A stretch of 43,449 nt of DNA from Candidatus Dormiibacterota bacterium (GTDB lineage Bacteria > Chloroflexota > Dormibacteria > Aeolococcales > Aeolococcaceae). The stretch's first letter is position 1. The number at the start of each line of letters is the position of its first letter. Position numbers and translations under genes: made by a program. Under the pieces are notes generated by a model, which did no database searches, was not told the DNA's origin, and saw only the letters and a program-made list of their open reading frames with translations. Of the stretch, positions 3,369-40,835 are shown one piece after another. Where the stretch lies: positions 1-43,449 of the forward strand of contig PMYJ01000048.1 in the NCBI GenBank assembly GCA_003170875.1, written 5' to 3'.

Positions 3369-3494
3369 GGGGGTGAGTGAGCGGTTGCCTCTATCCCAGG
3401 GCTGGTAAAGGATGTCTCACGATACGCCGATCCGATCGGGTCACATTCGTCGATGCCGCCGGGGTCGTGGCCTCGGGCGGGCCGGCGGGCCGGC

Positions 3495-3522
3495 CGCCTC
3501 CGCCGCGACCGCGGCGGAGGCG
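3495..3522 (-). promoter_or_regulatory. Intercistronic GC-rich hairpin between the binding-protein gene and the ATPase genes
   Basis: cgcctccgccgcg (3495-3507) and cgcggcggaggcg (3510-3522) are perfect reverse complements (13-nt arms). The hairpin lies in the 213-nt gap between the stop at 3582 and the start at 3368. Confidence 0.5.
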
Positions 3523-3581
3523 CCGACCCGGGTTCCGTTTCCGCCGGGGAGCGGGCAGGCTCCCTCAGCGAACGGAGAAGG

Positions 3582-9971: not shown

Positions 9972-11252
9972 GTGGCTGCCGGCAGCGCCTCCCCCCTGCC
10001 CGACGATCCTCCGGGCATCGTCGACCGGAAGGCGGAGCACATCCGGATCAACCTCGAGGAGGACGTGGCCGCCAAGGGTGTGACCACGGGCTTCGAGCGC
10101 TACCGCTTTGTCCACCGCGCCCTCCCCGAGATCGACCTGGAGTCGGTGAGCCTGGAGACGTCGTTCCTGGGGCGCCGGCTGGGTGCCCCCCTCCTCTTCT
10201 CGTGCATGACCGGGGGCACCCCGCGCGCCCGCCAGATCAACCGCACCCTGGCGGCGGCGGCGCAGCGCCACCGGGTGGCGATGGGCCTCGGCTCCTGCCG
10301 GGTGCTGCTGGAGCATCCCGAGGTGCTCGCCACCTTCGCGGTCCGCGACCTCTGCCCCGACGTGCCCCTGCTCGCCAACCTGGGCGCGGTCCAGCTCAAT
10401 CTCGGGGTGGGGACAGCCGCCTGCCGCCGGATCGTCGACGTGCTCGAGGCCGACGCCCTGGTGCTGCACCTCAACCCGCTCCAGGAGGCGCTCCAGCCCG
10501 AGGGCGACACCCGCTTCGCCGGGCTCTTCCGCCGGATCGAGGCGCTCTGCGCGGCGCTCGAGATCCCGGTCATCGTCAAGGAGGTCGGCTGGGGGATCGC
10601 CCCCGACCTGGTGGCCGCCCTCTTCGATGCCGGTGTCGCTGCGGTCGACGTCGCCGGGGCGGGGGGCACCTCCTGGAGCGAGGTGGAGCGGCACCGGATC
10701 GCCGACCCGGTGCGGGCTCGGGTGGCGGCGGCCTTCGCCGACTGGGGGCTGCCCACCGCCGACGCGATCCGGCTGGCCCGGGAGGCCGCTCCCCGGGGGA
10801 CCCTGATCGCGAGCGGCGGTATCCGGGGCGGGGTCGAGGTGGCGATGGCGATCGCCCTCGGCGCCGACCTGGCGGGCAGCGCCGGCTCGATGCTCCGGGC
10901 CGCCGACCTGGGCGAGGAGGCGCTTGACGCGGCTGTCGACGAGATCACCGACACGCTGCGCATCGCGATGTTCTGCGCGGGGGCCCGGGATGTCGGCAGC
11001 CTCTTCCGAGACGCCCGGCTCCTATCCCGGGCCGCAGGCGGCGCGGGGACCCCTGAGCTGCTTACAGGGGCTCGCCCCGCCCCACGCGGCAGGCCGCGCG
11101 GGGGCCCCCCCTCTTCCCACAGGGGCTCGCCGTCCCTCGCCGGCGCGGCAGAGCCGCGCTCGGCTCACCCCGCCATGGACGCGGCGCGGCAGAGCCGCGC
11201 TCGCCTCACCCCGCCTCAACACTCCGCCGCGGGCGGCGCGGCCACGCCGTGA
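9972..11252 (+). CDS. fni: Type 2 isopentenyl-diphosphate delta-isomerase (FMN-dependent), with a repeat-derived 3' tail
   Basis: DRKAEHIRINL, FSCMTGGT, VIVKEVGWGI and VAGAGGTSW motifs. The recognisable homology ends near LRIAMFCAGARDVGSLFRDARLL (about 11030). The last 70 or so codons are read through repeat DNA up to a TGA that overlaps the next gene's GTG. Confidence 0.85.
   Translation: MAAGSASPLPDDPPGIVDRKAEHIRINLEEDVAAKGVTTGFERYRFVHRALPEIDLESVSLETSFLGRRLGAPLLFSCMTGGTPRARQINRTLAAAAQRHRVAMGLGSCRVLLEHPEVLATFAVRDLCPDVPLLANLGAVQLNLGVGTAACRRIVDVLEADALVLHLNPLQEALQPEGDTRFAGLFRRIEALCAALEIPVIVKEVGWGIAPDLVAALFDAGVAAVDVAGAGGTSWSEVERHRIADPVRARVAAAFADWGLPTADAIRLAREAAPRGTLIASGGIRGGVEVAMAIALGADLAGSAGSMLRAADLGEEALDAAVDEITDTLRIAMFCAGARDVGSLFRDARLLSRAAGGAGTPELLTGARPAPRGRPRGGPPSSHRGSPSLAGAAEPRSAHPAMDAARQSRARLTPPQHSAAGGAATP
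11058..11215 (+). repeat. Composite array of a GC-rich double-hairpin repeat: one degenerate copy, one full copy, and one duplicated 3' half
   Basis: 11105-11180 matches 13995-14070 at 71 of 76 positions (counted by hand). cttacaggggctcgcc recurs at 11061. gcggcagagccgcgctcg[g/c]ctcaccccgcc occurs at 11145 and again at 11186. Confidence 0.85.
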
Positions 11253-13027
11253 GCGCCGAGGTCCGGGACGGTTCCGCATCGCTCAGCCGGCGCGAGGCCG
11301 ACGCCCTCTGCCTCCGGATGGCCCGGCGCCACTACGAGAACTTCTCGGTCGCGTCGCTCGTGGTGCCCCGCCCGCTCCGGCTCCACCTGGCCCGGATCTA
11401 CGCCTTCTGCCGGACCACCGACGACCTCGGCGACGAGAGCGGCGAGGACGCGCTCTGGCGGCTGCGGCTCTGGCAGTCCGAGGTCGAGGCCATGTTCCGG
11501 GGGCGCCCGCCCGTCCACCCGGTGCTGGTCGCCCTGGCCGGCACGGTCCGCCGCTTCGAGATCCCACCCGAGCCCTGCCTCGACCTGATCGCCGCCAACG
11601 TGCAGGACCAGCGGGTCAGCGCCTACGCCACCTGGGAGGAGCTGCGCGACTACTGCATGCTCTCGGCCGCCCCGGTCGGCCGGATGGTGCTCCGCCTCTT
11701 CGAGGTGGCGGACCCGCGGGCGGTGCCGCTCTCCGACGACGTATGCATCGGGCTGCAGCTCGCCAACTTCGCCCAGGATGTCGCCGTCGACCGGGGCAAG
11801 GGACGCACCTATCTGATCCAATCTGAGCTGGACCGTCTCGGCCTGCCCGGTGCGGTGGAGGCCATGTGCGACCGCGCCCTCCAGCTGCTCGGGTCAGGCC
11901 GTGAGCTGGAGCAGCTCCCCATGCCGGGACGGCTCCGCCTCCAGCTCCGCCTCTACCGCCGGGGCGGCGAGGCGATCATCGAGGCGATCCGCCGCGAGGG
12001 ATTCCGGACCGATCGCAGCCGGCCGCAGGTCGCGACGGCGACCAAGCTCGGCCTGGTGGCCGGCGCCGTCTCGGAGGGTGTCCGCGCGCGGAGCGACGGC
12101 TCCCTGGCCGCCGCCGAGCGGTACTGCCAGCGGATGGCCCGCCGGGAGGCCGGCAACTTCTACTGGGGGTTCATCGCCCTGCCCCGCACCCAGCGGATCT
12201 CCATCTACGCGCTCTACGACTTCGCGCGGCAGATCGACGACGCGACCGACGGACCCGGGGCGACCGACGCCGGGGTCTGGCTCGACGTGAGCTCCGGGCG
12301 CCACGACCTGGAGCGCCCTCCCGCCGATGGAACTGCCCGCGCCCAGCTCGAGCTGCAACGGCGGCGACTGCGTCGGGCACTGGCGGGCGACCCCGCCGGC
12401 GACCCCGTGATGCAGGTTCTCGCCCGGGCGGTCCAGCGCCACAGCATCCCTGCCTCGGAGCTGGAGGAACTGGTGAGCGGGGTCGAGATGGACCTCCACC
12501 AGAATCGCTACGCCACCTGGGAGGAGCTGCGCGGCTACTGCCAGCTGGTGGCCGGGGTGGTCGGCCGGATGTGCGTGCGCATCTTCGGCTTCGACAGCGA
12601 CGACGCCTTGGAGCGCGCCGACTCCCTGGGCGCGGCCCTCCAGCTCATCAACATCCTTCGGGACGTCCGGGAGGACGCCTCGCTGGGGAGGGTCTATCTT
12701 CCCCAGGACGAATTGGCCCGGTTCGGCGTCTCCGAGACCTCGCTTCTCGCCGGCCGGCCCGACGGCGCCTGGACCTCGCTCGTCGAGTTCGAGGCGGCCC
12801 GCGCGCGCCGCCTCTACGCTTCCGGGATCCAGGTCTGCGAGCACATCCCGGGACCCGCCCGCGCGTGCGTCCGCACCATGGCCGGGATCTACAGCGGCAT
12901 CCTCGACCGCATCGAGGCGGAGCCCGAGCTGCCCCTCCGGCAGCGGGTGCGCCTCTCCTCCGGGGAGAAGGCGGGGGTGATGCTCCGCTCCTGGATGTCC
13001 TCGACCGCGGCGGGCCGCGGACGATGA
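11249..13027 (+). CDS. hpnCD: Fused HpnC-HpnD protein (two squalene/phytoene-synthase-fold domains: hydroxysqualene synthase plus presqualene diphosphate synthase)
   Basis: The N-terminal half has ENFSVASLVVP, FCRTTDDLGDES and LANFAQDVAVD. The C-terminal half has GNFYWGFIALP, YDFARQIDDATD and LINILRDVREDASLGRVYLPQDEL. Both ends are GTGA/ATGA-coupled to the neighbouring genes. Confidence 0.85.
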   Translation: MSAEVRDGSASLSRREADALCLRMARRHYENFSVASLVVPRPLRLHLARIYAFCRTTDDLGDESGEDALWRLRLWQSEVEAMFRGRPPVHPVLVALAGTVRRFEIPPEPCLDLIAANVQDQRVSAYATWEELRDYCMLSAAPVGRMVLRLFEVADPRAVPLSDDVCIGLQLANFAQDVAVDRGKGRTYLIQSELDRLGLPGAVEAMCDRALQLLGSGRELEQLPMPGRLRLQLRLYRRGGEAIIEAIRREGFRTDRSRPQVATATKLGLVAGAVSEGVRARSDGSLAAAERYCQRMARREAGNFYWGFIALPRTQRISIYALYDFARQIDDATDGPGATDAGVWLDVSSGRHDLERPPADGTARAQLELQRRRLRRALAGDPAGDPVMQVLARAVQRHSIPASELEELVSGVEMDLHQNRYATWEELRGYCQLVAGVVGRMCVRIFGFDSDDALERADSLGAALQLINILRDVREDASLGRVYLPQDELARFGVSETSLLAGRPDGAWTSLVEFEAARARRLYASGIQVCEHIPGPARACVRTMAGIYSGILDRIEAEPELPLRQRVRLSSGEKAGVMLRSWMSSTAAGRGR

Positions 13028-14553
13028 AGACCGCACCGCCGGTGGCGGCTCCACGCGACGGCGTGACGGCGCTGGAGAGCGTGGACGCGGCCCCCGCCCG
13101 TCACGTCGCCGTCGTCGGCGCGGGGCTGGCCGGGTTGTCCGCCGCGCTGGCGCTGAAGCGCGAGGGCTGGAGGGTGACCCTGGTGGAGCGCAGCCGCCTG
13201 CTCGGCGGCAAGACCACCTCCTTCCAGCTCGGCGGGGTCGAGATGGACAGCGGCCAGCACGCGATCCTCGGCTGCTACACGAGCTTCCTGGAGTTCGTCG
13301 AGGAGCTGGGGATGCGGGGTGACCTCCGCATCCAGGAGCGCTTCGACGTGCTGATGCTCACCGAGACCGGTCGCGCCCGGCTCCGCGCCCTCCGCCTGCC
13401 CGCGCCGCTGCATCTGGCGCTCCCGTTCCTGCGTTTCCGGGCCCTCGGCCTCCGGTCGCGGCTCCAGGTGGCGCGCGCGCTGCTCGCCGCCAAGCGGCCC
13501 CGCAGCGGGGAGGAGGACGAGACCTTCGCCGCCTGGCTCCACCGCCACGGCCAGGGGACGCAGGCGCAGCGGGTCTTCTGGGAGCCGTTCCTGGTCCCCG
13601 CCCTCAACGCCCCGTTTGACCGGGTGAGTGCCGCCGCCGGCCTGATGGTGGTCCGCACCGCCCTGCTCGGCAACCGCGATGCCGCCCGGATCGGCTACGC
13701 GACCGTGCCCCTCGCCCGCTTCGCGGAGCGGGCGGCGGAGCGGTGTGACGAGGTGCTCCTGCGCACCCCGGTGACCGGGCTCCAGGTCGAGAGCGGCGAG
13801 CTCCGCGGGCTACTGACCGGCGGTCTGGAGATCGGTGTGGACGGTGCCGTCCTCGCCATCCCGCCGGAGCGGCTCGTCCGGATGGCCGGCGTGGAAGCGC
13901 TGGGGGTTCCGGGCCTGAGCGCCTTCACCACCCAGCCGATCGTCGACGTGCATCTCTGGTACCAGCGGCCCATCGGCGCAGGCGCCGATGGGGACCCCCA
14001 CTCTTCTTACAGGGGCTCGCCGCCCCTCGCCGGCGCGGCAGAGCCGCGCTCGGCTCACCCCGCCATGAACTCTGCCAAGGACCCTGCGGCCGTCTGGCCG
14101 TACCTCGATTTCGCCGCCATGACCGGCTCGCCGGTGCAGTGGATCTTCGCCAAGGGACCGGGGTATCTCTGCTGCAGCCTGAGCAGCGCCGACGACCTGG
14201 TCTCCCAGCCCGAGGAGCGCTTGGTCGCCCTCGCCGACTCCGAGCTGCGCTCCCGGCTCCCGGAGCTGGGTGGTGCCACCCTCCTCCGCGGCGTCGCAGT
14301 GCGCGACCCGGAGGCGACTTTCGTCCCCGCCCCGGGACTGCGGCGCCCCGGGCCGGCGACCGCCCTTGGCAACACGGTCCTTGCCGGATGCTGGACCGAC
14401 ACCGGCTGGCCGGCGACCATGGAGGGGGCGGTGAGGAGCGGGCGCGAGGCCGCCCGGACACTGGCGGCAGCACTGTCAAAGCACGAGCGCGCGACGAGCT
14501 CGCGCCCCACCCCGGCCCGGACGGCGCAGGGCAGAGACGGGGGTGGGTCATGA
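13024..14553 (+). CDS. hpnE: HpnE, squalene-associated FAD-dependent desaturase (hydroxysqualene oxidoreductase), carrying an in-frame repeat insertion
   Basis: FAD fold HVAVVGAGLAGLSAALAL, an amine-oxidase-like body and a SPVQWIFAKG segment. The start ATG 13024 overlaps the hpnCD stop (ATGA). The track ORF from 12571 is a 5' over-extension. Confidence 0.85.
   Translation: MKTAPPVAAPRDGVTALESVDAAPARHVAVVGAGLAGLSAALALKREGWRVTLVERSRLLGGKTTSFQLGGVEMDSGQHAILGCYTSFLEFVEELGMRGDLRIQERFDVLMLTETGRARLRALRLPAPLHLALPFLRFRALGLRSRLQVARALLAAKRPRSGEEDETFAAWLHRHGQGTQAQRVFWEPFLVPALNAPFDRVSAAAGLMVVRTALLGNRDAARIGYATVPLARFAERAAERCDEVLLRTPVTGLQVESGELRGLLTGGLEIGVDGAVLAIPPERLVRMAGVEALGVPGLSAFTTQPIVDVHLWYQRPIGAGADGDPHSSYRGSPPLAGAAEPRSAHPAMNSAKDPAAVWPYLDFAAMTGSPVQWIFAKGPGYLCCSLSSADDLVSQPEERLVALADSELRSRLPELGGATLLRGVAVRDPEATFVPAPGLRRPGPATALGNTVLAGCWTDTGWPATMEGAVRSGREAARTLAAALSKHERATSSRPTPARTAQGRDGGGS
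13995..14070 (+). repeat. 76-nt double-hairpin repeat copy located inside the hpnE coding sequence
   Basis: Hairpin 1 is aggggc/tcgcc/gcccct (14011-14027). Hairpin 2 is gcgcggc/aga/gccgcgc (14033-14049). The element is 71/76 identical to 11105-11180 and is translated in frame as SSYRGSPPLAGAAEPRSAHPAMN. Confidence 0.85.
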
Positions 14554-16484
14554 GTGAGTCGGCCCTGCGGGGCGCGGTGGATTGGCTCCTGGAGCGCCAG
14601 GACGCGGCGGGCTGGTGGACGGCGGAGATGGAGACCAACGTCACCATGACCGCCGAGCACCTGCTCCTCCTCCGCTTCCTCGGCCTCGACCACGCCGAGA
14701 TCGCGGAGGGGGCCAAGGAGCACATCCTCGGCAAGCAGCGCGCCGACGGCAGCTGGCCCCTCTACCACGAGGGCCCTGGCGACCTCAGCACCACCATCGA
14801 GGCCTACGTCGCGCTCCGTCTCCTCGGCTTCGACGCCTCCTGCGCCCCGCTCGCGCGCGCCTGCCATTTCATCCTCGATCAGGGCGGTCTCGCCGAGGCA
14901 CGCGTCTTCACCAAGCTCTGGCTGGCGCTGTTCGGCGAATACCCGTGGGACGGGGTGCCGTCGATGCCGCCCGAATTGATCCATCTGCCGTCTCGCGTCC
15001 CGCTCAACCTCTATGACTTCGCATGTTGGGCCCGCGGCACCATCGCGCCGCTGCTCATCGTGCTGAGCCGCAAACCGGTGCGGGCGCTGGGGTTCAGCGT
15101 CCAGCAGCTGGTCGCGCCGGGCAGCCAGCAGCGGCTCCACCGGGTCCCGGGCTCGGGAGTGTTCTGGTGGCTGGACAAGCTGCAGAAGGCGTACGAGCGG
15201 CTCCCCCGCCAGCCCGGACGCGAGCGTGCCCGGCGCAACCTCACGGAGTGGATCACGCACCACCAGGAGGCGGACGGGAGCTGGGGCGGAATCCAGCCGC
15301 CCTGGGTCTACTCGTTGATCGCGCTCAACCTCGAGGGGATGGAGGTCGACCACCCACTGATGCGCCGCGGGCTGCGCGGCCTGAGCGACCGCTTTGCCGT
15401 CACCGACTCGCAGGGCTGGCGGCTGCAGGCCTGCATGTCGCCGGTGTGGGACACCGCCTGGGCGGTGCTGGCGCTCCGCGCCTGCGGCCTCCCGCGCAGC
15501 TATCCGGCCATCCGCTCGGCGGTCGACTGGACCATCGGTGAGCAGATCCTCACCGGCGGCGACTGGCAGGTGAAGGTGCCCCGCCAGGAGTGCGGCGGCT
15601 GGGCCTTCGAGTTCGACAACGACATCTACCCCGACGTCGACGACACCGCCATCGTCGTGCTCGCCCTGCTGGAGGGTGGCGAGGGACGGCGCGCGCGAGT
15701 CGCGGCGGAGAGGGGCGCGCGCTGGGTGGAGGCGATGCGCTCGCGCAACGGCGCGTGGGGATCGTTCGACAAGGACAACACCCGGAAGCTCGTCTACCGC
15801 ATCCCCTTCGCGGACTTCGGGGCGATGCTCGACCCCCCGAGCGAGGATGTCACCGCCCACGTGCTCGAGATGCTCGCCGGTCTCGGACGGGGATCCGGTG
15901 ATCCGCTGGTCCGCGGGGGGCTCCGCTACCTCGCGCGCGAGCAGCGTGCCGCCGGCTCGTGGTACGGGCGCTGGGGCGTGAACCACGTGTACGGCACCTG
16001 GTGCGTGCTCTCGGCGCTCTCCACCCTCGGCTGCAGCGGCTCCCGCGCGCGCCGTGCCGTGGCCTGGCTGCTCCGGGTACAGAACGAGGACGGCGGATGG
16101 GGGGAGAGCTGCCACTCCTACGAGGACGAGAGCTTCGCCGGGGTCGGAGTCAGCACCGCCTCGCAGACCGCCTGGGCGGTCATGTCGCTGCAGCGAACCG
16201 GCCACGGCGAGCATCCGGCCTGCCGGCGTGGCCTCGACTTCCTCCGGGAGCGGCAGCAGGGGGGCACCTGGCCGGAGCCGGAGTACACGGGGACAGGGTT
16301 CCCGGGCGACTTCTACCTCAACTACGGGATGTACCGGCACCTCTTCCCCACCATGGCCCTGGGGATGGCGGGAGGACTCGAGCGGATCGCGGGAGCGCGC
16401 GGCGACCTCGTCGGGCGACGGGCGACGGCGGACCGGAAGGCGGCAACGGCGGACCTGCGCGGCTCGCGGAGGACGGCGGGATGA
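14550..16484 (+). CDS. shc: Squalene-hopene cyclase
   Basis: DxDD catalytic motif (YPDVDDTAIVVLAL), repeated QW-type motifs (DGSWPLY, DGSWGG, GAWGSF, GSWYGRWG, DGGWGE), about 644 aa. ATG 14550 overlaps the hpnE stop. Confidence 0.95.
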   Translation: MSESALRGAVDWLLERQDAAGWWTAEMETNVTMTAEHLLLLRFLGLDHAEIAEGAKEHILGKQRADGSWPLYHEGPGDLSTTIEAYVALRLLGFDASCAPLARACHFILDQGGLAEARVFTKLWLALFGEYPWDGVPSMPPELIHLPSRVPLNLYDFACWARGTIAPLLIVLSRKPVRALGFSVQQLVAPGSQQRLHRVPGSGVFWWLDKLQKAYERLPRQPGRERARRNLTEWITHHQEADGSWGGIQPPWVYSLIALNLEGMEVDHPLMRRGLRGLSDRFAVTDSQGWRLQACMSPVWDTAWAVLALRACGLPRSYPAIRSAVDWTIGEQILTGGDWQVKVPRQECGGWAFEFDNDIYPDVDDTAIVVLALLEGGEGRRARVAAERGARWVEAMRSRNGAWGSFDKDNTRKLVYRIPFADFGAMLDPPSEDVTAHVLEMLAGLGRGSGDPLVRGGLRYLAREQRAAGSWYGRWGVNHVYGTWCVLSALSTLGCSGSRARRAVAWLLRVQNEDGGWGESCHSYEDESFAGVGVSTASQTAWAVMSLQRTGHGEHPACRRGLDFLRERQQGGTWPEPEYTGTGFPGDFYLNYGMYRHLFPTMALGMAGGLERIAGARGDLVGRRATADRKAATADLRGSRRTAG

Positions 16485-32411: not shown

Positions 32412-32744
32412 GTGGCACCAGCGGCGGGACAGGGCGGGTCGAGCAGCACCCCCACCCTCTACGTGGGCAGCATCACAGCCTTCAACGACCTCTCGGACGC
32501 ATTCCAGCGGGCGCGCGGTCAGGTCGTCCGCGCTGCCGCCGACCTCGGTGCGCATGGCTCAGGCTCCAGCGATCCCTTTGGGCACGCCTCTTCTGACACC
32601 CACTACAAGCAGGTGCTCGGGGAGACGCTGAGCGCGCTGGACAACCTGGACGGCGGCCTGCTGACGCTGGCACGCAGGGTCGAGGAGGCGGGGGCCGTGC
32701 TGGTGGCTGCGGAGCACAGCGTCGCGCAGACGATGACGCCCTGA
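32412..32744 (+). CDS. WXG100/Esx-like small helical protein (putative T7SS helper or co-substrate)
   Basis: 110 aa with two long predicted helices separated by a Gly/Ser turn that carries PFG where W-x-G would sit. GGAG lies 8 nt upstream of the GTG. It sits directly upstream of the toxin gene. The family call is tentative. Confidence 0.55.
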   Translation: MAPAAGQGGSSSTPTLYVGSITAFNDLSDAFQRARGQVVRAAADLGAHGSGSSDPFGHASSDTHYKQVLGETLSALDNLDGGLLTLARRVEEAGAVLVAAEHSVAQTMTP

Positions 32745-32763
32745 GAGGGAGGGGAATCCACTC

Positions 32764-33768
32764 ATGGGCCTTCCCGGCTGGATGCCCGGCCGGCCGGGCG
32801 GCGACCCCCAGCGGCTCTCCCAACTGGCCGAGGCGTGGGATGCCCTCGACTCCGCCCTGCAGGCATCCGAGCGGCAGCTCACACCCCATGCCGGCGACGT
32901 TTCCACCTGGTGGCGGGGGCAGGCCGCCGGCGCCTACACCACCGCCTGGCACGACTACTCGGCCGGCCTGGCCCCGCTCCGCCGGCAGATCGAGGCGGTG
33001 TCGGGGACCCTGCACGTGGCCGCCTTCGCGATCTGGAGCTCCCAGAACCAGTACGACCAGGTCGTCGAGGAGGTGGTGGCCGGGGCGGTGGTGCTCACCG
33101 GCGCGGCCTTCTTCACCTTTGGTCTGTCCGAGGCCGGCGAGGGCGGGGTGCTGGGGGCGGCCAGCGCCACCATCGCAGAACTTCTCGCGACCCTGGCCGA
33201 CGCCCTCGCCCAGGTCGCCGCCACCATCGCGGAGGTGCTCGCCGCGATGGGCCGGATCGCGGCTCAGTTGCTGCTGCCGTTCAGTGGGGGTGCGGGAATG
33301 GCGGGTGGGCTGGCTTACGCCCTTCCCAGCGGCGGCAGCATCGCCATCACTACCACCGCGGCCGGCGCGTCCGAGATGCTGGTCAATGGGCAGGTGGTTG
33401 CTGTCGGCCTCGTCGCGATCGACGTCTTGTTGGCCAAGGCACTTGGCGGTGGTGGACAGTCGGGCGGCTCGATCACGGGCCCGAACGGCGGCTCGTCACA
33501 GGGAACCTCTCCGTGCCCGCCCGGGGCGCCTCGTGAGATCGACGGCTACACCCAACACGGGCTCGAGCAGGTGATGGGACGTGACGGCGGCGTCGGCGTC
33601 ACCGATTCCGCTATGAATGACGCCGTGGAGGATCCTTTGAAGGTCGAGGTCCAACCCGGCGGGAAGTTCAGGTACATCGGCAAGACTGCCACCGTGGTTC
33701 TCAATTCTGTTGGGAGGGTCGTGACGGCTTGGGCAAGAACCAGTTCAGCGTGGAGAGTGATCCCATGA
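32764..33768 (+). CDS. Polymorphic toxin: WXG-type N-terminal domain, hydrophobic Ala/Gly-rich middle, Gly/Ser linker, small C-terminal toxin module
   Basis: The W-x-G motif (STWWRGQAAGAY) lies in an Esx-like helical region. The linker is GGGGQSGGSITGPNGGSSQG. The C-terminus is REIDGYTQHGLEQVMGRD...KFRYIGKTATVVLNSVGRVVTAWAR. A GAGGGAGGGG SD precedes the ATG. Confidence 0.7.
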   Translation: MGLPGWMPGRPGGDPQRLSQLAEAWDALDSALQASERQLTPHAGDVSTWWRGQAAGAYTTAWHDYSAGLAPLRRQIEAVSGTLHVAAFAIWSSQNQYDQVVEEVVAGAVVLTGAAFFTFGLSEAGEGGVLGAASATIAELLATLADALAQVAATIAEVLAAMGRIAAQLLLPFSGGAGMAGGLAYALPSGGSIAITTTAAGASEMLVNGQVVAVGLVAIDVLLAKALGGGGQSGGSITGPNGGSSQGTSPCPPGAPREIDGYTQHGLEQVMGRDGGVGVTDSAMNDAVEDPLKVEVQPGGKFRYIGKTATVVLNSVGRVVTAWARTSSAWRVIP

Positions 33769-34046
33769 CGAGCGTCGTGGAGTCCCTCCCGGCCGAGATG
33801 CGAAGTCTGTTTGCCGAGGTGATCGGCAGCAGAGACGTGGCATTGCTTTCGTCCCTTCTCGCCCACCCAGAGCCGGAGTTGGCCGAGCGACTGGCGGTTG
33901 AAGACATCTTGAGCACCGAGTTCACGACATGCCTCCAAGCAGACGACGAGCCGACGAGGCGAGGCCGAGACATCGACAACCTGTTGGGTGCGTTCCTCCT
34001 GCAGTGGCCGATCGACCTGGAGAAAGGCCACCCGGCGTCCGGCTGA
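33765..34046 (+). CDS. Putative cognate immunity protein (93 aa, acidic)
   Basis: Its ATG overlaps the toxin TGA (ATGA at 33765-33768). It is a small acidic helical protein and is visibly lower in GC than the flanks. The track ORF start at 33729 lies inside the toxin gene. Confidence 0.6.
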   Translation: MTSVVESLPAEMRSLFAEVIGSRDVALLSSLLAHPEPELAERLAVEDILSTEFTTCLQADDEPTRRGRDIDNLLGAFLLQWPIDLEKGHPASG

Positions 34047-34120
34047 TCGAGTTCTAGCGAACCGCGCCCTTCCGGTCGCCAATCCTCTTGGGGCAAGGGA
34101 TCGGGACAGGATTCGCGAGT

Positions 34121-34152
34121 TGTCTCCTCGATTGTCCGTCTACTGTCCGTCT
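34121..34152 (+). promoter_or_regulatory. Three phased direct repeats (TGTCYSYTC) upstream of the lipoprotein/Tad-like operon
   Basis: tgtctcctc (34121), tgtccgtct (34133) and tgtccgtct (34144), spaced 12 and 11 nt apart. A second pair, gccgtgag, occurs at 34174 and 34185 (11-nt spacing). Confidence 0.4.
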
Positions 34153-34330
34153 GCTCTCCGTAAGCTCGGCCCAGCCGTGAGCAGGCCGTGAGTGGCTCTC
34201 CAGAAGGGGGTCGCCGGGGGGGATATCGGCGGAGTGGATGTTGGGTGCGCTGCCAATGGCCGCTAGCAGGGCCAGGGGTGACCTGGGTACACTGCCGATC
34301 GCATCACCCGCGTCTTGGGAAGGAAGGACT

Positions 34331-35230
34331 GTGGGCACCTCTCTCCCCTACCCGCCTGGATCTTCATCTTTGTCCCGTTTGACTCGTTCGCGCCGGTGGC
34401 TCGCGACTCTGACTTTGCTCGCGAGCCTGGCAGCCGGGTGTGGCGGGGGCCAGGCAACCGCCCGCCCTTCGGCCGCGCCACCGGACACCTCCAGCAGTGC
34501 GCATGCGAACGGGACGACGTCGGGCGCCACTGCGAGTCCTATTCCCACCTCCTACTGCGACGCGCAGGACACCACCATCCCGGGAGCCGCCGCGTTTCTC
34601 GCGGGTCAGGGGGCACACCCGACCAACCTGACGGCGGTCCAGGAGGCCTGGCTCGACATGGAGGCCACGATGGTGCCGGCGTGCTCCGAAATCGTGCCCA
34701 ATCCGCCGCCGGTGACCACGCAGAACCTGACCAAAGGCGAGTTGAGCACCGCCGACTTCCAGACCTGGGTGACCGAGGATGAGATGTGGTGGACCCTCGC
34801 CGAGTGGGCTGGCCAGCACGACCAGCCCGACTTCGTCACATACTTCTTGCTGGGGGGTAGCGGCGACACGTTTACCAGCTTCCTCCGGACCGGAGGTAAG
34901 GTGGTCGACAGCCAGACCTGCGAGTACGCGTCGAAATACGACGCGGTGGCGGTGACGGCCGAGCAGATGTCGGACCTCACCGTAAACCGTTTGACGAGCG
35001 CAGGTGTTGTTTTCGTCGGAGCGGCCGTGGGGCCCTGCACAAGTACGTGGACGGCCTCCGACGGCACCGTGACGAACAAGGGCCTGGCTGCCAGAGAGGA
35101 GGGGCGCGAGCTTGACGTTACGACGACCCAGACGAACGCCGCGCTCGGCCAGTACTTGGTTGTCAACGACAGTTGGGATCAGGCGGACGACGCAACTGCG
35201 GACTCGATCTTCGCTCAGGTTGGAATCTGA
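34331..35230 (+). CDS. Lipoprotein of unknown function
   Basis: Signal plus lipobox RRWLATLTLLASLAAGC GGG. The GTG at 34331 follows GGAAGGAAGGA. No recognisable catalytic motif. Confidence 0.7.
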   Translation: MGTSLPYPPGSSSLSRLTRSRRWLATLTLLASLAAGCGGGQATARPSAAPPDTSSSAHANGTTSGATASPIPTSYCDAQDTTIPGAAAFLAGQGAHPTNLTAVQEAWLDMEATMVPACSEIVPNPPPVTTQNLTKGELSTADFQTWVTEDEMWWTLAEWAGQHDQPDFVTYFLLGGSGDTFTSFLRTGGKVVDSQTCEYASKYDAVAVTAEQMSDLTVNRLTSAGVVFVGAAVGPCTSTWTASDGTVTNKGLAAREEGRELDVTTTQTNAALGQYLVVNDSWDQADDATADSIFAQVGI

Positions 35231-35234
35231 GAAA

Positions 35235-36587
35235 GTGAGTCGCCGCCGAGTGGTCGGGGTAGTCTGCGTGGTGAGCGCAATGGTCGTGACCAGCGGCGCC
35301 ACCGTAGTGCTCGCCTACTCCGGAAATGGAGAGGGAGCTAACTGCGCACCAGCCGCCGGACTGAACCTCGCCGTCGGCGAGCCACCACAGCCGGGACCTG
35401 CCGGAAGCGTCGCCGCGGACGGCAGCCTCACCCTCTACTGCCGGGGCGCAGGGACCAACTCGCGCGCCGGGACCTACACGGCCGGAGTCAATACAGGCGA
35501 AGTTACGACCCCCACGGCTGGCCAGATCTGCAGCGTGAACATCAGTTATGAGAATGCCCAGGTCCTGGGCCAGTCGTTCCAGGAGTCGGAGTACGAGCCC
35601 GGCGCAGTGACGGTCTTCCCGCTCGCTTTCTGGACCGGAACCATCGATGCCGGCATCGTGCCCGCGTCGGGCTCCTTCGGCGACTTCTGGGGAAGTGTGA
35701 CCGACACGGCACCGGCGAGGCTCGGGGTCGATTGGGCAGCCGCCTCGCGGTATGGACCCGCACCGCCGAGTGCCCAACCTGGCTCGGGTCTTGCCACGGG
35801 GGGGTTGATCATGTCGGGACTGGAGAACGAGACGCTCCAAGTATCGGTCACGACCGTGCCCGGCGACCCCGGGAAATGGGAGCAGGGCGCCAACGGCGAA
35901 TGGCTCTGCGATGGACCCAGACTCAGCCTCACCGTTCGGACGGTGGCCGACGAAGATTACCCCCCCTCAGAAACGCCACCCATCGAGCCGTCCTGGGCGC
36001 CGCCGACGCTGCAGCAGGCCATGGCCTCGGCCGGCGTCACCGCTGGGGAGGTGCAGACAAGCGCCCCGAACAACTACGTGGTCTTCGCTCCCACGACCTT
36101 CTGGATCAACCCTCAGCCCCAGGGGCCTGACGTCCCCCCTACGGTCATGAATGCCATCGGTGACCCCGACGCCGACGGCGAATCCATCGTCTTCACCTAC
36201 TACCTGGCCGTGACTCCTTCCGACACGATCAACTGGAACTTCGGGGACGGTACAACCGGAACGTCCCAAGCCGAGAGCTCGGGACCGGGGGAAGCAGGGG
36301 TCACCCACTACTACAAGCAGATCAGCGGTGAGGGGAACGTCCCGGCCGCCGGTCCGACCGTGACCGCCACCCAGGACGTGACCGTCACCGCCTTCGTCGC
36401 CTGGGTCGACTGGAACGGGGACGCCTATTACGGATGTGTCACCCCAGGCGGCGGCGTGAACGGAATGTTCGGCTACACCCAGGCCCAGGCGGTTGCCGCC
36501 TGCAGTACCACCTACGCCAACGCCCTCGTCGAGGGTGCGTTACCGGCCAAGCCCGTCTACCAGGTCCGGGCGATTCCGGTGTCCTGA
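35235..36587 (+). CDS. Signal-anchored secreted protein with a C-terminal PKD-like segment
   Basis: N-terminal VVGVVCVVSAMVVTSGATVVLA, with INWNFGDGTTG...THYY (PKD-type WxFGDG signature) near the C-terminus. The GTG lies 5 nt after the lipoprotein stop. Confidence 0.7.
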   Translation: MSRRRVVGVVCVVSAMVVTSGATVVLAYSGNGEGANCAPAAGLNLAVGEPPQPGPAGSVAADGSLTLYCRGAGTNSRAGTYTAGVNTGEVTTPTAGQICSVNISYENAQVLGQSFQESEYEPGAVTVFPLAFWTGTIDAGIVPASGSFGDFWGSVTDTAPARLGVDWAAASRYGPAPPSAQPGSGLATGGLIMSGLENETLQVSVTTVPGDPGKWEQGANGEWLCDGPRLSLTVRTVADEDYPPSETPPIEPSWAPPTLQQAMASAGVTAGEVQTSAPNNYVVFAPTTFWINPQPQGPDVPPTVMNAIGDPDADGESIVFTYYLAVTPSDTINWNFGDGTTGTSQAESSGPGEAGVTHYYKQISGEGNVPAAGPTVTATQDVTVTAFVAWVDWNGDAYYGCVTPGGGVNGMFGYTQAQAVAACSTTYANALVEGALPAKPVYQVRAIPVS

Positions 36588-36588
36588 G

Positions 36589-37152
36589 ATGGGAGGGGGG
36601 CGAGGCCGACGACCCCGACGCGGGGGGCAGTCCACCGTGGAGTTTGCCCTCGTCTTCGGGCTGTTTCTCGTGGCACTTCTGGCGATCCTCGATACGTGGA
36701 TCTGGACCATTGAGACGGATGCCGCGGACGCCTCCGTCGAGCAGGGCATCGGGGTGGCGATGTCGGCTCAAGGCTCCGCCACCAGCCTCACACCCGCGCT
36801 CACCGATGTGTACGCGAGCGTCCTTCCGCTCCTTCAGCAGCCGATGCTCGGCACGAGTGTGGAGAACTGGTACGCACCCAACCTCGCCGCGCTCCGCGAC
36901 GAGATCGGGCCGACCGCCTGTCCCACCGCCGACCAGGTGGCCGACTACTTCGACGGTCTCCGCTCGGGCTATGACGGAGTGGGCCATGTGGTCGTCTGCG
37001 CGGCCAACGACGGCGCCGGCCACGTCACGGTCTCCATCACCGGCTATGCACTGTCCATGGTTCCACCCGGCTTCGGGCCCTTCAACTGGCGGGGTTGGGG
37101 TCTCCCGATCTCCGAGATGGCGTCCGTCAACGTGGGCACGTACTCGCCATGA
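36589..37152 (+). CDS. TadE-like pseudopilin / Flp pilus assembly protein
   Basis: N-terminal RRGGQSTVEFALVFGLFLVALLAIL (TadE N-terminal motif). The ATG lies 2 nt after the upstream stop. Confidence 0.8.
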   Translation: MGGGRGRRPRRGGQSTVEFALVFGLFLVALLAILDTWIWTIETDAADASVEQGIGVAMSAQGSATSLTPALTDVYASVLPLLQQPMLGTSVENWYAPNLAALRDEIGPTACPTADQVADYFDGLRSGYDGVGHVVVCAANDGAGHVTVSITGYALSMVPPGFGPFNWRGWGLPISEMASVNVGTYSP

Positions 37153-37658
37153 GAACCGGGCGTAGGCGGCGGGGTGGCCAGGGTGCACAGGCGGCCATTG
37201 AGATGGCACTCGTCCTCCCCATCATGATCGTCATCGTCTGCGGCTTCGTTGGGATGATGCTCGAGCTGAGAGCCGAGAACGAATTCCAGACGGCGGTGGA
37301 TCTCGCCGCTCAGGCCGCGCTGGTGCCCCCACTCGGAGATCAGGCGGCCAGCCAGGCCGACTCCGACTACGCCTTCTCGCACACCCTCAACCCCAACGGC
37401 AGCGAGAGCGGCTACCTCTCCGTGACCACCCCGATCAACTGCGAGGGCCCGTACCTCGAAGGCGAGATCGACCTCAACAACGAGGGCATCCCTGCCCCCG
37501 TGACCTGCACGGCCCAGGCGACCCTCGACTTCTCCAAGACGCCGATCAGCATCTTCTGGTTCTGGTCGATCCAGCTCAGTTCCACATCGGACGCGTATCC
37601 GCCGCAGTATCGGCAGTGCCAGACCACCTCGGGCTCCGTGAGTCCCTTCCAATGCTGA
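37149..37658 (+). CDS. TadE-like pseudopilin / Flp pilus assembly protein
   Basis: N-terminal RRGGQGAQAAIEMALVLPIMIVIVCGFVGMM. ATGA overlap with the upstream gene. Confidence 0.8.
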   Translation: MRTGRRRRGGQGAQAAIEMALVLPIMIVIVCGFVGMMLELRAENEFQTAVDLAAQAALVPPLGDQAASQADSDYAFSHTLNPNGSESGYLSVTTPINCEGPYLEGEIDLNNEGIPAPVTCTAQATLDFSKTPISIFWFWSIQLSSTSDAYPPQYRQCQTTSGSVSPFQC

Positions 37659-38165: not shown

Positions 38166-38441
38166 TCAGCCGGCCAGGCGGACCAGCCTCTGGTGGAGCA
38201 CCTGGACGAAGTCCTCGTGCTCGGGCTTCATGGGCACTGCCTGCTCGGGTTTCTCGTCCTCACTCAGCGCGGCCGGCGCGCTGAGCGCATCGAGAGGCAT
38301 CGGGTCATCGTCGTGCCAGGCGCCCGTATCAACGTCGCCGAGCTGGTCCCCGGCGAGGCCGTTTACGCGGATTGACTTCGCCTGCTCACCCTCGGGCGCC
38401 AGCTGTCTCCGCCAGCTGAGGCAACTCATGACACGAGCCAC
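38166..38441 (-). CDS. Hypothetical small acidic protein (start uncertain)
   Basis: By eye the 3' two-thirds has the host-like high third-position GC. Possible starts are GTG 38441, ATG 38429 (both overlapping the 3' end of the GGDEF-EAL gene) or ATG 38300. No recognisable motif. Confidence 0.3.
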   Translation of the reverse strand: MARVMSCLSWRRQLAPEGEQAKSIRVNGLAGDQLGDVDTGAWHDDDPMPLDALSAPAALSEDEKPEQAVPMKPEHEDFVQVLHQRLVRLAG

Positions 38442-40692
38442 TCGCCTGCTGACCCCGAAGGAGCTCCTCGAAGCGGTCAGCGGGCACGGGTGGGCTGAAG
38501 AGATATCCCTGGAGCAGGTCGCAGCCGTTGCTGCGGAGGAAGGCCAGCTGCTCTGGGGTCTCGACGCCCTCGGCGGTGACCTGCAGGCCGAGCCGGTGGG
38601 CGAGCGCGATCATCGCCGCCACCAGCGGAGCGTCGTCCTCCTCGCGCTTGATGTCGCTGATGAACGACCGATCGATCTTGAGGCGGTCGACAGGGAAGGT
38701 CGCTAGCTTGCTCAGGCTCGAGTACCCCGTGCCGAAGTCGTCGATGGCGACGGCGATGCCGGCGCTGCGCAGGTGGCGCAGCTCGTTGAGGGCCTCCACC
38801 GGCTGCGACACCGCGGCGCCCTCGGTGATCTCGACCTCGAGGCGATCCCGGGAGAACCCGGTCGCGAGTAGCGCGGCCGACACCCTGTCGACGAGCTCGC
38901 CCCGGCCCAGATCGCGCCCCGAGATGTTGACGGCGAGGAGGAGATCGCCCAGGCCCGACGCCCGCCACGCAGCCACCTGGGAGCACGCGGCGTGGAGCAT
39001 CCAGGTGTCGATGGCCGTGATCATCCCCGTTTCCTCGGCAAGGGGGATGAAGGTGTCGGGAAGCACGAAGCCTCGGATAGGGTGCTGCCAGCGCACCAGG
39101 GCCTCGCAGCCGACGATGGCGCCGCCGTCTCCCGAAATGACCGGCTGGAAGAACAGGCGCAGCTCGCCGCGCTCCACGGCGTGGCGCAGGTCCTGGTCCA
39201 GGCTCAGGCGTTCGGTGGCCGTCGCGAGCATGCTGGGCATGAAGACCTCCACCCTGCCCCTGCCCGCAACCTTGGCTGCGTACATCGCCAGCTCGGCGTT
39301 GCGCAGCAGCTCATCGGCACTGGTCTCCGCGGTCGATGACGTGACAACGCCGATGCTGAGGCTGATCACCAGGCTGCCGCTCGCGAACTCGAGGGGAGAC
39401 CGGAATGCCTCGTCGAGGCGCTCCGCCGCCCCGAGGGAGTCGTCGGCGCGGTCGACTTCCTCGAGGAGCACGGCAAACTCGTCGGCGCCCAGCCTGGCGA
39501 CGGTGTCGCCGGGGCGGAGCGCTGCCTTTATCCGTGCCGCCGCCGCCTGGAGCAGGGAGTCGCCCGCCAGATGGCCCAGGCTGTCGTTGACGTCCTTGAA
39601 GTGATCCAGGTTGATAAACAGGACTGCGATGGTGGCGTTGAGGCGGCGCATCCGGTTAAGCGCATGCGCAACCCGCTCGGCGAACAGAGCCCGGTTGGCG
39701 CCGCCCGTCAGAGGGTCGCGGAAGGCGCCCTCGCGCAGCTGCGTGTCCAACCGGTTGCGCTCGGTCACGTCGTTGATGAGCGTGAGGATCCCGGGACGAC
39801 CGTCGAACTCCTGGGGCACGGTGGTGAGCTCGACGTCGATGAGCCGGCCGTCCCGCAGGCGGTGGCGGGCATTGAAGGCCGTCTTCCTCAGCCGGGCCCG
39901 GTTGAAGTCGACGGCAAGATGGGCAACATCGCGGCGGATGGCGGCGATGGTCAGCGCCCCGAACTCCTCCGCTGAGTACCCGTACTTGGCAACAGCGGCC
40001 TCGTTGACCGCGAGAAAGCGCTGCGTCTCCGCGTCGAGCACCCACATCGGCTGGGGGTTCTTGAAGAACAGGCGGCGGAACCTCGCCTCGCTGGCGACGA
40101 GGGCGCTCTCGCACCGCCGGCAGGTCTCGCGCAGCTCGATGTTCACCCACGCTCTGACCGCCGCCGCCGTGACCTGGTCGGCGACGAGCCGGAGGGCCTC
40201 CGCCTGGGCTTCGTCGAACGCATGGGGTTGGGACGAGGTCACCGTGATCGCCCCCAGGCTCACGTCCGCGTGGACCAGAGGGACGGTGATTAGCGACCGC
40301 GCCCCCAGGCGGCGGCACACCTCCCGATCCACCCGGGGGTCCACCTCGGTGTCCCCGCAGACCTGGGCGGCGCTGCCGAGCGGACCGCGCCACGGGTGGT
40401 CGGGCTCGGCACCTGCAGGCCGGGAGCGAGAGGCAGGCCAGGTCCCTGCCGTCGCCCGGTGGGCCAGACCGTCGCCATCGACCACCTCGACCACGGCTCG
40501 CTCGGCCCCGCAGAGGGCCTGGGCCCGCGCAACGGCCCGCCAGGCGATGGCGTCCAGGTTGGCACCGCGGTCGAGGACCTCCTGCTGGAATGCGGCGAGG
40601 TCGAGGACCTGTGGCACCACCGACGCTCGTCCCACCCGCCATCGGACCTCGGGCGCGGCCCCGGGAACTCGTCGCGGAAGGCTGGACTCCAT
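38386..40692 (-). CDS. GAF-PAS-GGDEF-EAL c-di-GMP turnover protein
   Basis: The PAS region includes FRRLFFKNPQPMWVLD. The GGDEF domain has RLGADEF (39475-39489) with RxxD (RPGD) 5 residues upstream. The EAL domain has EALVRW, DDFGTGYSSL, KIDRSF and EGVE. Confidence 0.9.
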   Translation of the reverse strand: MESSLPRRVPGAAPEVRWRVGRASVVPQVLDLAAFQQEVLDRGANLDAIAWRAVARAQALCGAERAVVEVVDGDGLAHRATAGTWPASRSRPAGAEPDHPWRGPLGSAAQVCGDTEVDPRVDREVCRRLGARSLITVPLVHADVSLGAITVTSSQPHAFDEAQAEALRLVADQVTAAAVRAWVNIELRETCRRCESALVASEARFRRLFFKNPQPMWVLDAETQRFLAVNEAAVAKYGYSAEEFGALTIAAIRRDVAHLAVDFNRARLRKTAFNARHRLRDGRLIDVELTTVPQEFDGRPGILTLINDVTERNRLDTQLREGAFRDPLTGGANRALFAERVAHALNRMRRLNATIAVLFINLDHFKDVNDSLGHLAGDSLLQAAAARIKAALRPGDTVARLGADEFAVLLEEVDRADDSLGAAERLDEAFRSPLEFASGSLVISLSIGVVTSSTAETSADELLRNAELAMYAAKVAGRGRVEVFMPSMLATATERLSLDQDLRHAVERGELRLFFQPVISGDGGAIVGCEALVRWQHPIRGFVLPDTFIPLAEETGMITAIDTWMLHAACSQVAAWRASGLGDLLLAVNISGRDLGRGELVDRVSAALLATGFSRDRLEVEITEGAAVSQPVEALNELRHLRSAGIAVAIDDFGTGYSSLSKLATFPVDRLKIDRSFISDIKREEDDAPLVAAMIALAHRLGLQVTAEGVETPEQLAFLRSNGCDLLQGYLFSPPVPADRFEELLRGQQASGSCHELPQLAETAGARG

Positions 40693-40835
40693 GATCCGAG
40701 CTCAGGCTAGTATGCGAACACGCCCGGCGCAGCCCGTTCTTGGTGATGCTTGTCTCAGAACCGCTCAGAAGTGTCACGATGCTGTGGCGCGTTTGGTGCG
40801 TCTGCTCGAGAAAGCGCGGGTCCCTCCACCCGGGA

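Follow-up and report, generated by a model that had tools for sequence, protein, structure and literature searches.

What kind of system is encoded by three tightly packed genes in the genome of an uncultured bacterium from peat or permafrost, and why does the end of the middle gene differ from that of its close relatives? The genes lie at positions 32412 to 34046 of contig PMYJ01000048.1 (assembly GCA_003170875.1, Candidatus Dormiibacterota bacterium), and the whole 43,449-nucleotide (nt) stretch of this contig that was analyzed is called the window here. An earlier note on this DNA had read the three plus-strand genes as a helper, a WXG-headed polymorphic toxin, and an overlapping immunity gene. 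The best explanation of the data as a whole, to which we assign a probability of roughly 0.7, is that the genes form a polymorphic toxin-immunity locus on the chromosome of a member of the Dormiibacterota, a phylum that has been little studied. Such a locus would consist of a helper, a secreted toxin with an exchangeable tip, and an antidote, and it would be a system of an ordinary kind. The linker and tip of the toxin were shown to make up, together with the immunity gene, a cassette that recombination has exchanged.

Organization of the locus

The three open reading frames (ORFs) lie on the plus strand at the positions where they had been placed. The helper gene (32412..32744) encodes 110 amino acids (aa) from a GTG start, and its product is predicted to form two helices and to partner the N-terminus of the toxin. 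After an intergenic gap of 19 nt follows the toxin gene (32764..33768), which encodes 334 aa and was delimited from the ORF list and from homologs P0001 to P0013. The immunity gene (33765..34046) encodes 93 aa from an ATG, or 105 aa if translation begins at the TTG at 33729; as had been described, the ATG, at 33765, shares bases with the toxin stop in ccATGAcg, and it has GGAGAG 8 nt upstream.

The anatomy proposed for the toxin, a W-x-G motif followed by a hydrophobic middle and a Gly/Ser linker, was also correct. A WXG100-type trafficking domain matched by PF25547 (residues 11 to 122, 32794..33129) contains the motif as W50-R51-G52. It overlaps an Ala/Gly/Val-rich hydrophobic middle defined by the hydropathy profile (residues ~100 to 229, 33061..33450). 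The Gly/Ser/Pro linker (residues 231 to 255, 33454..33528), with which the exchanged cassette opens, leads into the tip (residues 256 to 334, 33529..33765), which belongs to an unnamed family and is a predicted RNase of Colicin-like BECR fold. The locus is flanked by genes for phosphoenolpyruvate (PEP) carboxylase and dienelactone hydrolase and by Tad-like genes, and this synteny is shared by several metagenome-assembled genomes (MAGs). The window held no second copies or orphan modules of the locus, and scans of the locus for promoters, terminators, and repeats gave nothing above chance.

Exchange of a tip-immunity cassette

A search of 5.8 billion proteins returned 15 relatives of the toxin. 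Seven of these (P0001 to P0007) share its whole architecture, and two (P0008 and P0009) are partial copies. In three others (P0010, P0012, and P0013) the likeness is confined to the ~230 N-terminal residues, at 57 to 77% identity, and the C-terminus is a Colicin_D domain (PF11429). The head of P0014 is another one, PF21725 ("putative T7SS secretion signal domain"), but its tip is the same at 61% identity, the similarity starting at about residue 256 of the toxin.

The contig that encodes P0010 (L001) is syntenic with the window over a cytosine/purine permease, an AlkZ-like glycosylase, PEP carboxylase, dienelactone hydrolase, the 110-aa helper, and the toxin; behind the toxin gene of L001 comes an ORF of 136 aa whose start overlaps the stop of that gene. 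A Colicin_D tip is joined to the same N-terminus in L009 as well, and the Colicin_D tips are followed by unrelated ORFs of 136 or 124 aa. The polymorphism of C-terminus and immunity gene that the earlier note had anticipated among relatives is therefore present in orthologous loci from four Dormiibacterota MAGs and from metagenome contigs: the N-terminus is conserved, it carries either a Colicin_D tip or the tip seen here, and the immunity gene changes too.

Comparison of the nucleotide sequences located the edges of the exchange. When the window was aligned with L001, L002, and L009 by blastn, an identity of 86 to 87% ended exactly at 33455 and resumed at 34128 to 34171 and again from 34265. 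The left breakpoint corresponds to residue 231 of the toxin and falls between AKALGGGG and QSGG. Loci with the same tip (L005 to L007) align straight across the cassette, and L008 aligns from the start of the toxin gene, past its insertion. The exchanged cassette (33456..34127) comprises the linker, the tip, the immunity gene, and 81 nt of 3' flank, and the right-hand junction block (34128..34171) is 88 to 94% identical in loci with either cassette type. Linker, tip, and immunity gene thus form a cassette that is exchanged by recombination, with the coding sequence of ALGGGG and the short downstream block as its boundaries. The suggestion that a toxin-plus-immunity cassette had been swapped in holds, the boundary at 33455 lying no more than 25 nt from the ~33480 proposed from the sequence.

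Over the helper and the toxin N-terminus, the window is 82 to 84% identical in nucleotides both to loci of the Colicin_D type and to loci with the same tip. Because it is equally distant from the two, cassette type does not follow the phylogeny of the flanks. A common origin of the tip and the allelic Colicin_D tips was also considered and was not supported, with an hhalign probability of 1.4%.

Several further features of the related loci were observed. The 44-nt block at 34128 to 34171 is common to both cassette types and marks the right end of the exchanged segment; it may serve in regulation or simply be a recombination arm. Small PIN (VapC-like) toxin pairs adjoin the cassette in L004 (4778-5379), L005 (2613-3214), and L009 (7745-8128) and are absent from the window; in L005 the pair is part of a 1.4-kb insertion that separates the immunity gene from the conserved right junction, and the ORF in L009 is PIN-like by eye only. 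A decayed copy of the locus is present in L008 (2519-5261), from the Dormiibacterota MAG fen_879, with an in-frame stop in place of toxin residue W50. In this copy a 459-aa ORF resembling IS605 OrfB/TnpB (2867-4246), so called by eye from its C-terminal CxxC...CxxC, lies between helper and toxin.

The host is a member of Candidatus Dormiibacterota and not an actinobacterium. Four relatives of the toxin in the genome collection, at 73 to 80% protein identity, come from MAGs labeled Candidatus Dormiibacterota or Dormibacteria that were recovered from the Stordalen bog, palsa, and fen and from SPRUCE peat, and the flanking housekeeping DNA of related loci is 87 to 91% identical to the window. NCBI places Candidatus Dormiibacterota in the Bacillati. 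The sole match of the N-terminal domain in the genome collection outside the Dormiibacterota is a distant relative at 27% identity in a 624-aa ORF of an Actinomycetota MAG (KAP bin89; L013, 9740-11614).

Base composition

The GC content of the window is 70.4%. In the toxin gene up to 33455, GC is 0.724 and third-position GC (GC3) is 0.883; in the rest of the gene these values are 0.636 and 0.74, and the GC of the immunity gene is 0.631. Among all 672-nt segments of the 43 kb (mean 0.704, standard deviation 0.029), only 0.8% are as low as 33456-34127 (0.634), and the segment with the lowest GC (0.618) starts at 33534, inside the cassette. The fall in GC and GC3 that had been noticed by eye near ~33480 was reproduced by calculation, and the computed drop in GC matches the homology break at 33455. 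The maximum likelihood change point of GC3 in the toxin gene lies earlier, at 33283. The Colicin_D cassettes are likewise lower in GC than the N-terminal parts that precede them (in L001, 0.753 falling to 0.676 and 0.645).

The next four genes downstream have a GC content of 0.655 to 0.673. Because the low GC continues into these genes, composition alone does not delimit the cassette, and the pattern is a step down rather than an island with two edges. This downstream region (34238-37658) encodes a 330-aa ORF that is lipoprotein-like by eye, a 491-aa protein whose PKD-like matches are weak, and two TadE-like proteins; GC3 in these genes is ~0.79, below the rest of the window, and they are kept beside the toxin locus in most related contigs.

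The toxin tip: family, carriers, and predicted fold

The 80-aa tip had no match in Pfam, NCBIfam, PHROGs, or the sequences of the PDB, where both a profile of 64 sequences and the single sequence found only chance matches. A named family for the tip was sought without success, the scans against Pfam, NCBIfam, and PHROGs giving nothing close to threshold. The names given at source to tip-bearing proteins provide no family name, and the tip had no match in the phage collection. The earlier note had assigned neither the tip nor the immunity protein to a named family, and the Pfam, NCBIfam, and PHROG scans of both were indeed empty.

A hidden Markov model of the tip was searched against 1.84 billion representatives of clusters formed at 50% identity. 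The family it revealed is large, with 1191 cluster representatives at an E value of ≤1e-3 and 710 at ≤1e-10. In nearly all of the 150 matches listed, the tip stands at the extreme C-terminus, and the proteins that end in it range from 68 to 1950 aa. Among the carriers, the long ones are RHS-repeat proteins, including one that has a PT-TG pretoxin domain, and those of middle size have T7SS_signal, WXG100, WXG100_2, or PPE/EspB_PPE heads. On plasmids the tip is carried by haemagglutinin-repeat (Pannonibacter), DUF6443 (Hymenobacter), and RHS (Neorhizobium) proteins.

An AlphaFold2 model of the tip built on the 64-sequence alignment had a predicted local distance difference test (pLDDT) score of 89.3 and a predicted template modeling (pTM) score of 0.78. 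Its elements are helices at residues 10 to 22 and 27 to 35 and strands at 39 to 43, 47 to 51, 55 to 59, and 64 to 70, giving an alpha-alpha-beta4 topology. Near-invariant positions in the 64 tips are T9, H11, G12, R19, G22, G24, A29, A33, P37, G52, A55, V57, L59, N60, G63, T67, and R77; in the model H11 and R19 are on the first helix and T67 is on the last strand. The polar residues among these are T263, H265, R273, N314, T321, and R331 in full-length numbering, and D274 completes the set of conserved polar residues in the tip. Two close homologs, P0004 and P0005, are altered at tip positions that are conserved elsewhere, with EIDCDTQHG or EIDGDTQHG in place of EIDGYTQHG, as well as GRDDGLGV; the changes may inactivate the tip or reflect noise in sequencing.

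When the model was compared with PDB structures using Foldseek, the best whole-domain match among targets of similar size was CdiA-CT NC101 (query template modeling score, 0.49; probability, 0.93; E value, 0.14), followed by colicin D, CdiA-CT O32:H37, and RelE2, all of which are BECR RNase toxins. Colicin-like BECR proteins have been described as consisting of a pre-alpha helix, an alpha helix, and strands beta1 to beta4, with an active site formed by the pre-alpha helix and beta4 and often containing a His (preprint 10.64898/2026.08.28.747851). The characterized members mostly target tRNA, DUF4258/Ntox49 has been placed in the same group, and the families treated comprise 67 seed families and 5 new ones (preprint 10.64898/2026.08.28.747851). 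CdiA-CT tips related to this one need EF-Tu. The tip model has this topology, and conserved His and basic residues are found on its pre-alpha helix and last strand.

Because the model fits the published description and its best matches are BECR toxins, an RNase activity of the Colicin-like BECR type is rated the most likely for the tip, a prediction that we hold to be somewhat better than even. The earlier assignment of the tip to RelE/BECR-type, DUF4258-like toxins thus stands at the level of the fold, in its Colicin-like BECR topology, and fails at the level of the family, since no hidden Markov model of DUF4258 or of any other named family matched. When the 64 tips were compared with Pfam, one matched Colicin_E5 (E value, 0.14) and one matched DUF4258 (E value, 0.29), which is the level of noise.

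The immunity gene

Other loci with the same tip have a homolog of the 93-aa protein behind it: at 60% identity in L003, where the toxin is of the T7SS_signal type, and at 52 to 92% identity in L005 to L008. On plasmids of Pannonibacter and Hymenobacter, ORFs of 82 and 85 aa follow the giant tip-bearing proteins with a 4-nt overlap and share the motif I(S/N)DEF...EP(T/N)x(R/Y)G...L(L/I). An hhalign comparison of the Dormiibacterota and plasmid groups gave a probability of 84% and an E value of 7e-6 over 37 columns. The immunity family travels with the tip across phyla, the linkage being kept on plasmids of Proteobacteria and Bacteroidota. Its linkage to the tip, its position, and its co-variation with the tip support a role in immunity for the 93-aa gene, as judged from sequence comparison.

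Two unusual versions of the pair were also observed. In the metagenomic protein P0087 (310 aa) the tip (153-226) runs in frame into an immunity-like region, which may be a fusion or an artifact of a frameshift or of assembly. On a 371-kb contig of the Joint Genome Institute (L014, 9700-10267), an 88-aa immunity homolog at 63% identity (P0173) lies beside a truncated toxin, an 82-aa remnant of the T7SS_signal type that ends where the tip would begin (PPRRITGRTG...), so that the immunity gene is an orphan and the locus shows signs of decay.

The toxin N-terminus, the hydrophobic middle, and the helper

Residues 11 to 122 of the toxin matched PF25547 (WXG100_2) in the Pfam scan with a score of 29.5 bits, above the gathering score of 27. 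Matches to other families of this kind fell below threshold: PF06013 scored 22.8 against 27.3, TIGR03930 scored 22.6 against 44.85, and PPE was likewise below. A profile of nine N-terminal sequences matched CFP-10/EsxB in the PDB with E values of 3.7e-5 to 9.5e-5, Staphylococcus aureus EsxA with an E value of 1.8e-3, and PPE41 with one of 5.7e-3, and W50 and G52 are invariant across the alignment of toxin N-termini. The domain scan found no LXG domain in the toxin head.

An AlphaFold model of residues 1 to 245 places a helix at 15 to 49, the WxG turn, and helices at 53 to 119 and 123 to 169, with a pLDDT of only 55; when this low-confidence model was searched with Foldseek, PPE41 chains came out on top (E value, 5.6e-3). 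The WXG100 homology of the toxin N-terminus is established at the level of sequence and profile, and its three-dimensional detail is tentative. The description of the toxin head as WXG-type is borne out by the PF25547 score above gathering and the EsxB profile matches.

The middle of the toxin has two transmembrane-like segments, at residues 100 to 121 and 205 to 229, where the Kyte-Doolittle value of 19-residue stretches exceeds 1.7 with peaks of 1.8 and 2.1. The motif AAFFTFGLSEAG in this region is the most conserved stretch of the family and is shared with the distant relative P0015. Structure prediction of the hydrophobic middle was of low confidence.

The helper is kept 5' of the toxin in every Dormiibacterota locus (directly 5' in L001 and in L004 to L009), at 57 to 87% aa identity. 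Its conserved turn is DPFGH. The copy in the window had no Pfam match, and four of its eight homologs reached WXG100_2 below threshold (best E value, 0.0037). Scans of the helper against NCBIfam and PHROGs likewise gave nothing close to threshold. A helper profile matched ESAT-6 in the PDB at an E value of 0.063. Designed armadillo repeats were the top PDB matches of this profile and were set aside as a repeat artifact because no single stretch passes alone. Of the earlier description of the helper as WXG100/Esx-like, there remains a conserved gene with subthreshold affinity to that group; the WxG motif is missing.

Proposed mechanism and rival explanations

We hypothesize that the helper probably forms a helical bundle with the WXG100-type N-terminus and that this bundle would act as a targeting signal for export by an ESX/type VII-like system. 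The hydrophobic middle would then probably serve to attach the toxin to membranes or to bring it into the target cell. The 80-residue tip would be the killing domain, most likely a metal-independent RNase of Colicin-like BECR fold, with an active site made up of H265, R273, and D274 from the first helix and T321 from the last strand. The translationally coupled, acidic 93-aa protein would bind the tip and protect the producer and its kin. In this scheme we infer the type VII export, the pairing of helper and toxin, the RNase chemistry and its target, and the neutralization by binding.

A number of observations weigh against this reading. The model of the toxin N-terminus is poor and was used for secondary structure only. 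The helper, lacking a WxG and matching WXG100 below threshold, is only weakly WXG100-like. Sequence reading found no YxxxD/E motif (Tyr with Asp or Glu at +4) in the helper or in residues 1 to 130 of the toxin; this motif is not universal outside mycobacteria. Because of the weak helper evidence and the missing motif, the pairing of helper and toxin would follow by analogy with EsxA/EsxB, PE/PPE, and PEST1/2 (PMC10654092). For the tip, no Foldseek match in the PDB reached an E value of 1e-3, the best TM score being 0.49, and neither hhalign against the Colicin_D tips nor the Pfam scan gave a profile link to Colicin_D, Colicin_E5, or DUF4258. GC does not recover in the four genes behind the cassette.

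Export is the weakest step of the scheme, because no type VII core gene (EssC/EccC, EccB, EccD, or MycP) was found in the 43-kb window or in the flanks of related loci and because the literature search found no link of a type VII system to the Dormiibacterota. ESX systems have been predicted in the Chloroflexi (PMC4010439). Searches for relatives of the toxin N-terminus found none by tblastn in 50,697 phage records and none in the plasmid collection.

It is possible, then, that toxin and immunity gene act as described but that the toxin is delivered without a type VII system, the WXG-like head being a helical scaffold and the hydrophobic segments anchoring the protein in the producer's membrane or inserting it in that of the target, with the tip either displayed on the surface or translocating itself. 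The want of core genes, the lack of a YxxxD/E signal and of a published type VII system in the phylum, and the two segments above the usual transmembrane threshold would all fit this explanation. However, the N-terminus shares homology with genuine type VII substrates, fusions of this tip to T7SS_signal, PPE, and WXG100 heads recur, and a helper is conserved upstream as in known type VII toxin loci. Type VII toxins are also often encoded apart from their machinery, as in the LXG and PEST systems, which counts further against delivery by another route, and we regard this explanation as unlikely.

Unlikely, too, is that the tip is a toxin other than an RNase, using a small alpha/beta scaffold for target binding or for some other chemistry. 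No significant match of sequence or structure ties the tip to a characterized enzyme, and the BECR assignment draws on topology and weak Foldseek scores; the topology, however, is exactly that of the Colicin-like BECR group, invariant His, Arg, and Thr residues occupy the active-site positions of that group, and the top structural matches of comparable size are all RNase toxins. The small, RelE-sized tip, the overlapping gene for an acidic antidote, and the PIN-type toxin-antitoxin pairs that adjoin the cassette in related loci might instead suggest a toxin-antitoxin module that works inside the cell, in stress response or in defense against phages, rather than an exported weapon. The toxin, however, bears a 250-residue trafficking region, the tip also ends RHS and haemagglutinin proteins of 1000 to 2000 aa, and the toxin gene precedes the immunity gene, whereas in most type II toxin-antitoxin pairs the antitoxin comes first; this explanation is very improbable.

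An exported polymorphic toxin with its immunity gene remains the preferred reading. In a bolder version of it, ESX-like polymorphic toxins would be the means by which the Dormiibacterota, a candidate phylum for which no protein-toxin export system has been described, fight other bacteria. The tip, with its ~1200 clusters at 50% identity, would found a new and widespread branch of Colicin-like BECR RNases with its own immunity family, and the conserved AAFFTFGLSEAG middle would serve as a new module for crossing membranes, maybe without a canonical type VII machine. We consider this combination quite unlikely.

Comparison with known systems

The toxin shows three features of polymorphic toxins as Zhang and Aravind use the term: its N-terminus is shared with proteins that have unrelated tips, its tip occurs on unrelated carriers, and its downstream immunity gene co-varies with the tip. 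The closest architecture is that of the PEST1 and PEST2 cassettes found in prophages of the Mycobacterium abscessus group (PMC10654092). These have the same order of a WXG100 effector, a WXG-headed toxin, and an immunity gene; they combine one small helical partner with one WXG head in a predicted PE/PPE-like heterodimer; and their C-terminal tips vary and recombine while the immunity gene co-varies. In contrast, the Dormiibacterota locus is chromosomal and syntenic rather than prophage borne, belongs to another phylum and another tip family, and has a helper without a WxG.

The likeness to esxF-esxE-cpnT-ift of Mycobacterium tuberculosis, which the earlier note had pointed out, is looser. Both loci have an upstream helical helper, an ESX-type N-terminus, a C-terminal toxic domain, and a downstream immunity gene. 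The tip of CpnT is an NAD+ glycohydrolase, whereas the tip of the Dormiibacterota toxin is a predicted RNase. CpnT is preceded by two WXG100 genes and has an N-terminal domain of ~300 aa with two WXG-like motifs (PMC10654092). The Dormiibacterota locus has one helper, one WxG, and a helical head of ~120 to 170 aa, which brings it nearer to PEST1/2.

The LXG toxins of type VIIb systems in the Bacillota, such as YxiD, TelA to TelD, and EsaD with their Lap proteins or helpers, resemble the Dormiibacterota toxin in having a helical targeting head that acts with small partners, an immunity gene directly downstream, and polymorphic C-termini, several of which are RNases (PMC12700104, PMC10801868). 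The Dormiibacterota head differs in being WXG100_2/EsxB-like, without an LXG domain, and in being followed by a hydrophobic middle. The Colicin-like BECR toxins (colicin D, colicin E5, CdiA-CT NC101, and DUF4258/Ntox49) resemble the tip in its predicted pre-alpha helix, alpha helix, and four strands, in the His and basic residues, and in being C-terminal tips of polymorphic toxins with dedicated immunity proteins. They differ from it in that sequence and profile similarity is lacking and structural scores are weak, and the immunity family is unannotated and unrelated to theirs by name.

Other genes in the window

Two further regions of the window stand apart from the toxin locus. A squalene/phytoene synthase protein of 656 aa, in which SQS_PSY matches twice, is encoded beside a squalene-hopene cyclase in what is a hopanoid biosynthesis cluster (11057-16484). 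A large GAF-PAS-GGDEF-EAL signaling protein of cyclic-di-GMP turnover is encoded on the minus strand at 38386-40701.

Implications

The current understanding of such systems is not overturned, as this architecture is the one expected for polymorphic toxins. Known ESX-type polymorphic toxins are built in the same way. What is new here is the phylum, the widespread but unnamed tip family with its immunity family, and the precisely resolved allelic replacement. In uncultured bacteria of peat and permafrost, the replacement of a tip and its immunity gene could be resolved to the nucleotide. The locus brings to light a large tip family and an immunity family, both short and both unnamed in Pfam, NCBIfam, PHROGs, and the PDB. 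The locus also suggests that ESX/type VII-style delivery reaches the Dormiibacterota, which would widen the range of such delivery among the Bacillati (Terrabacteria).

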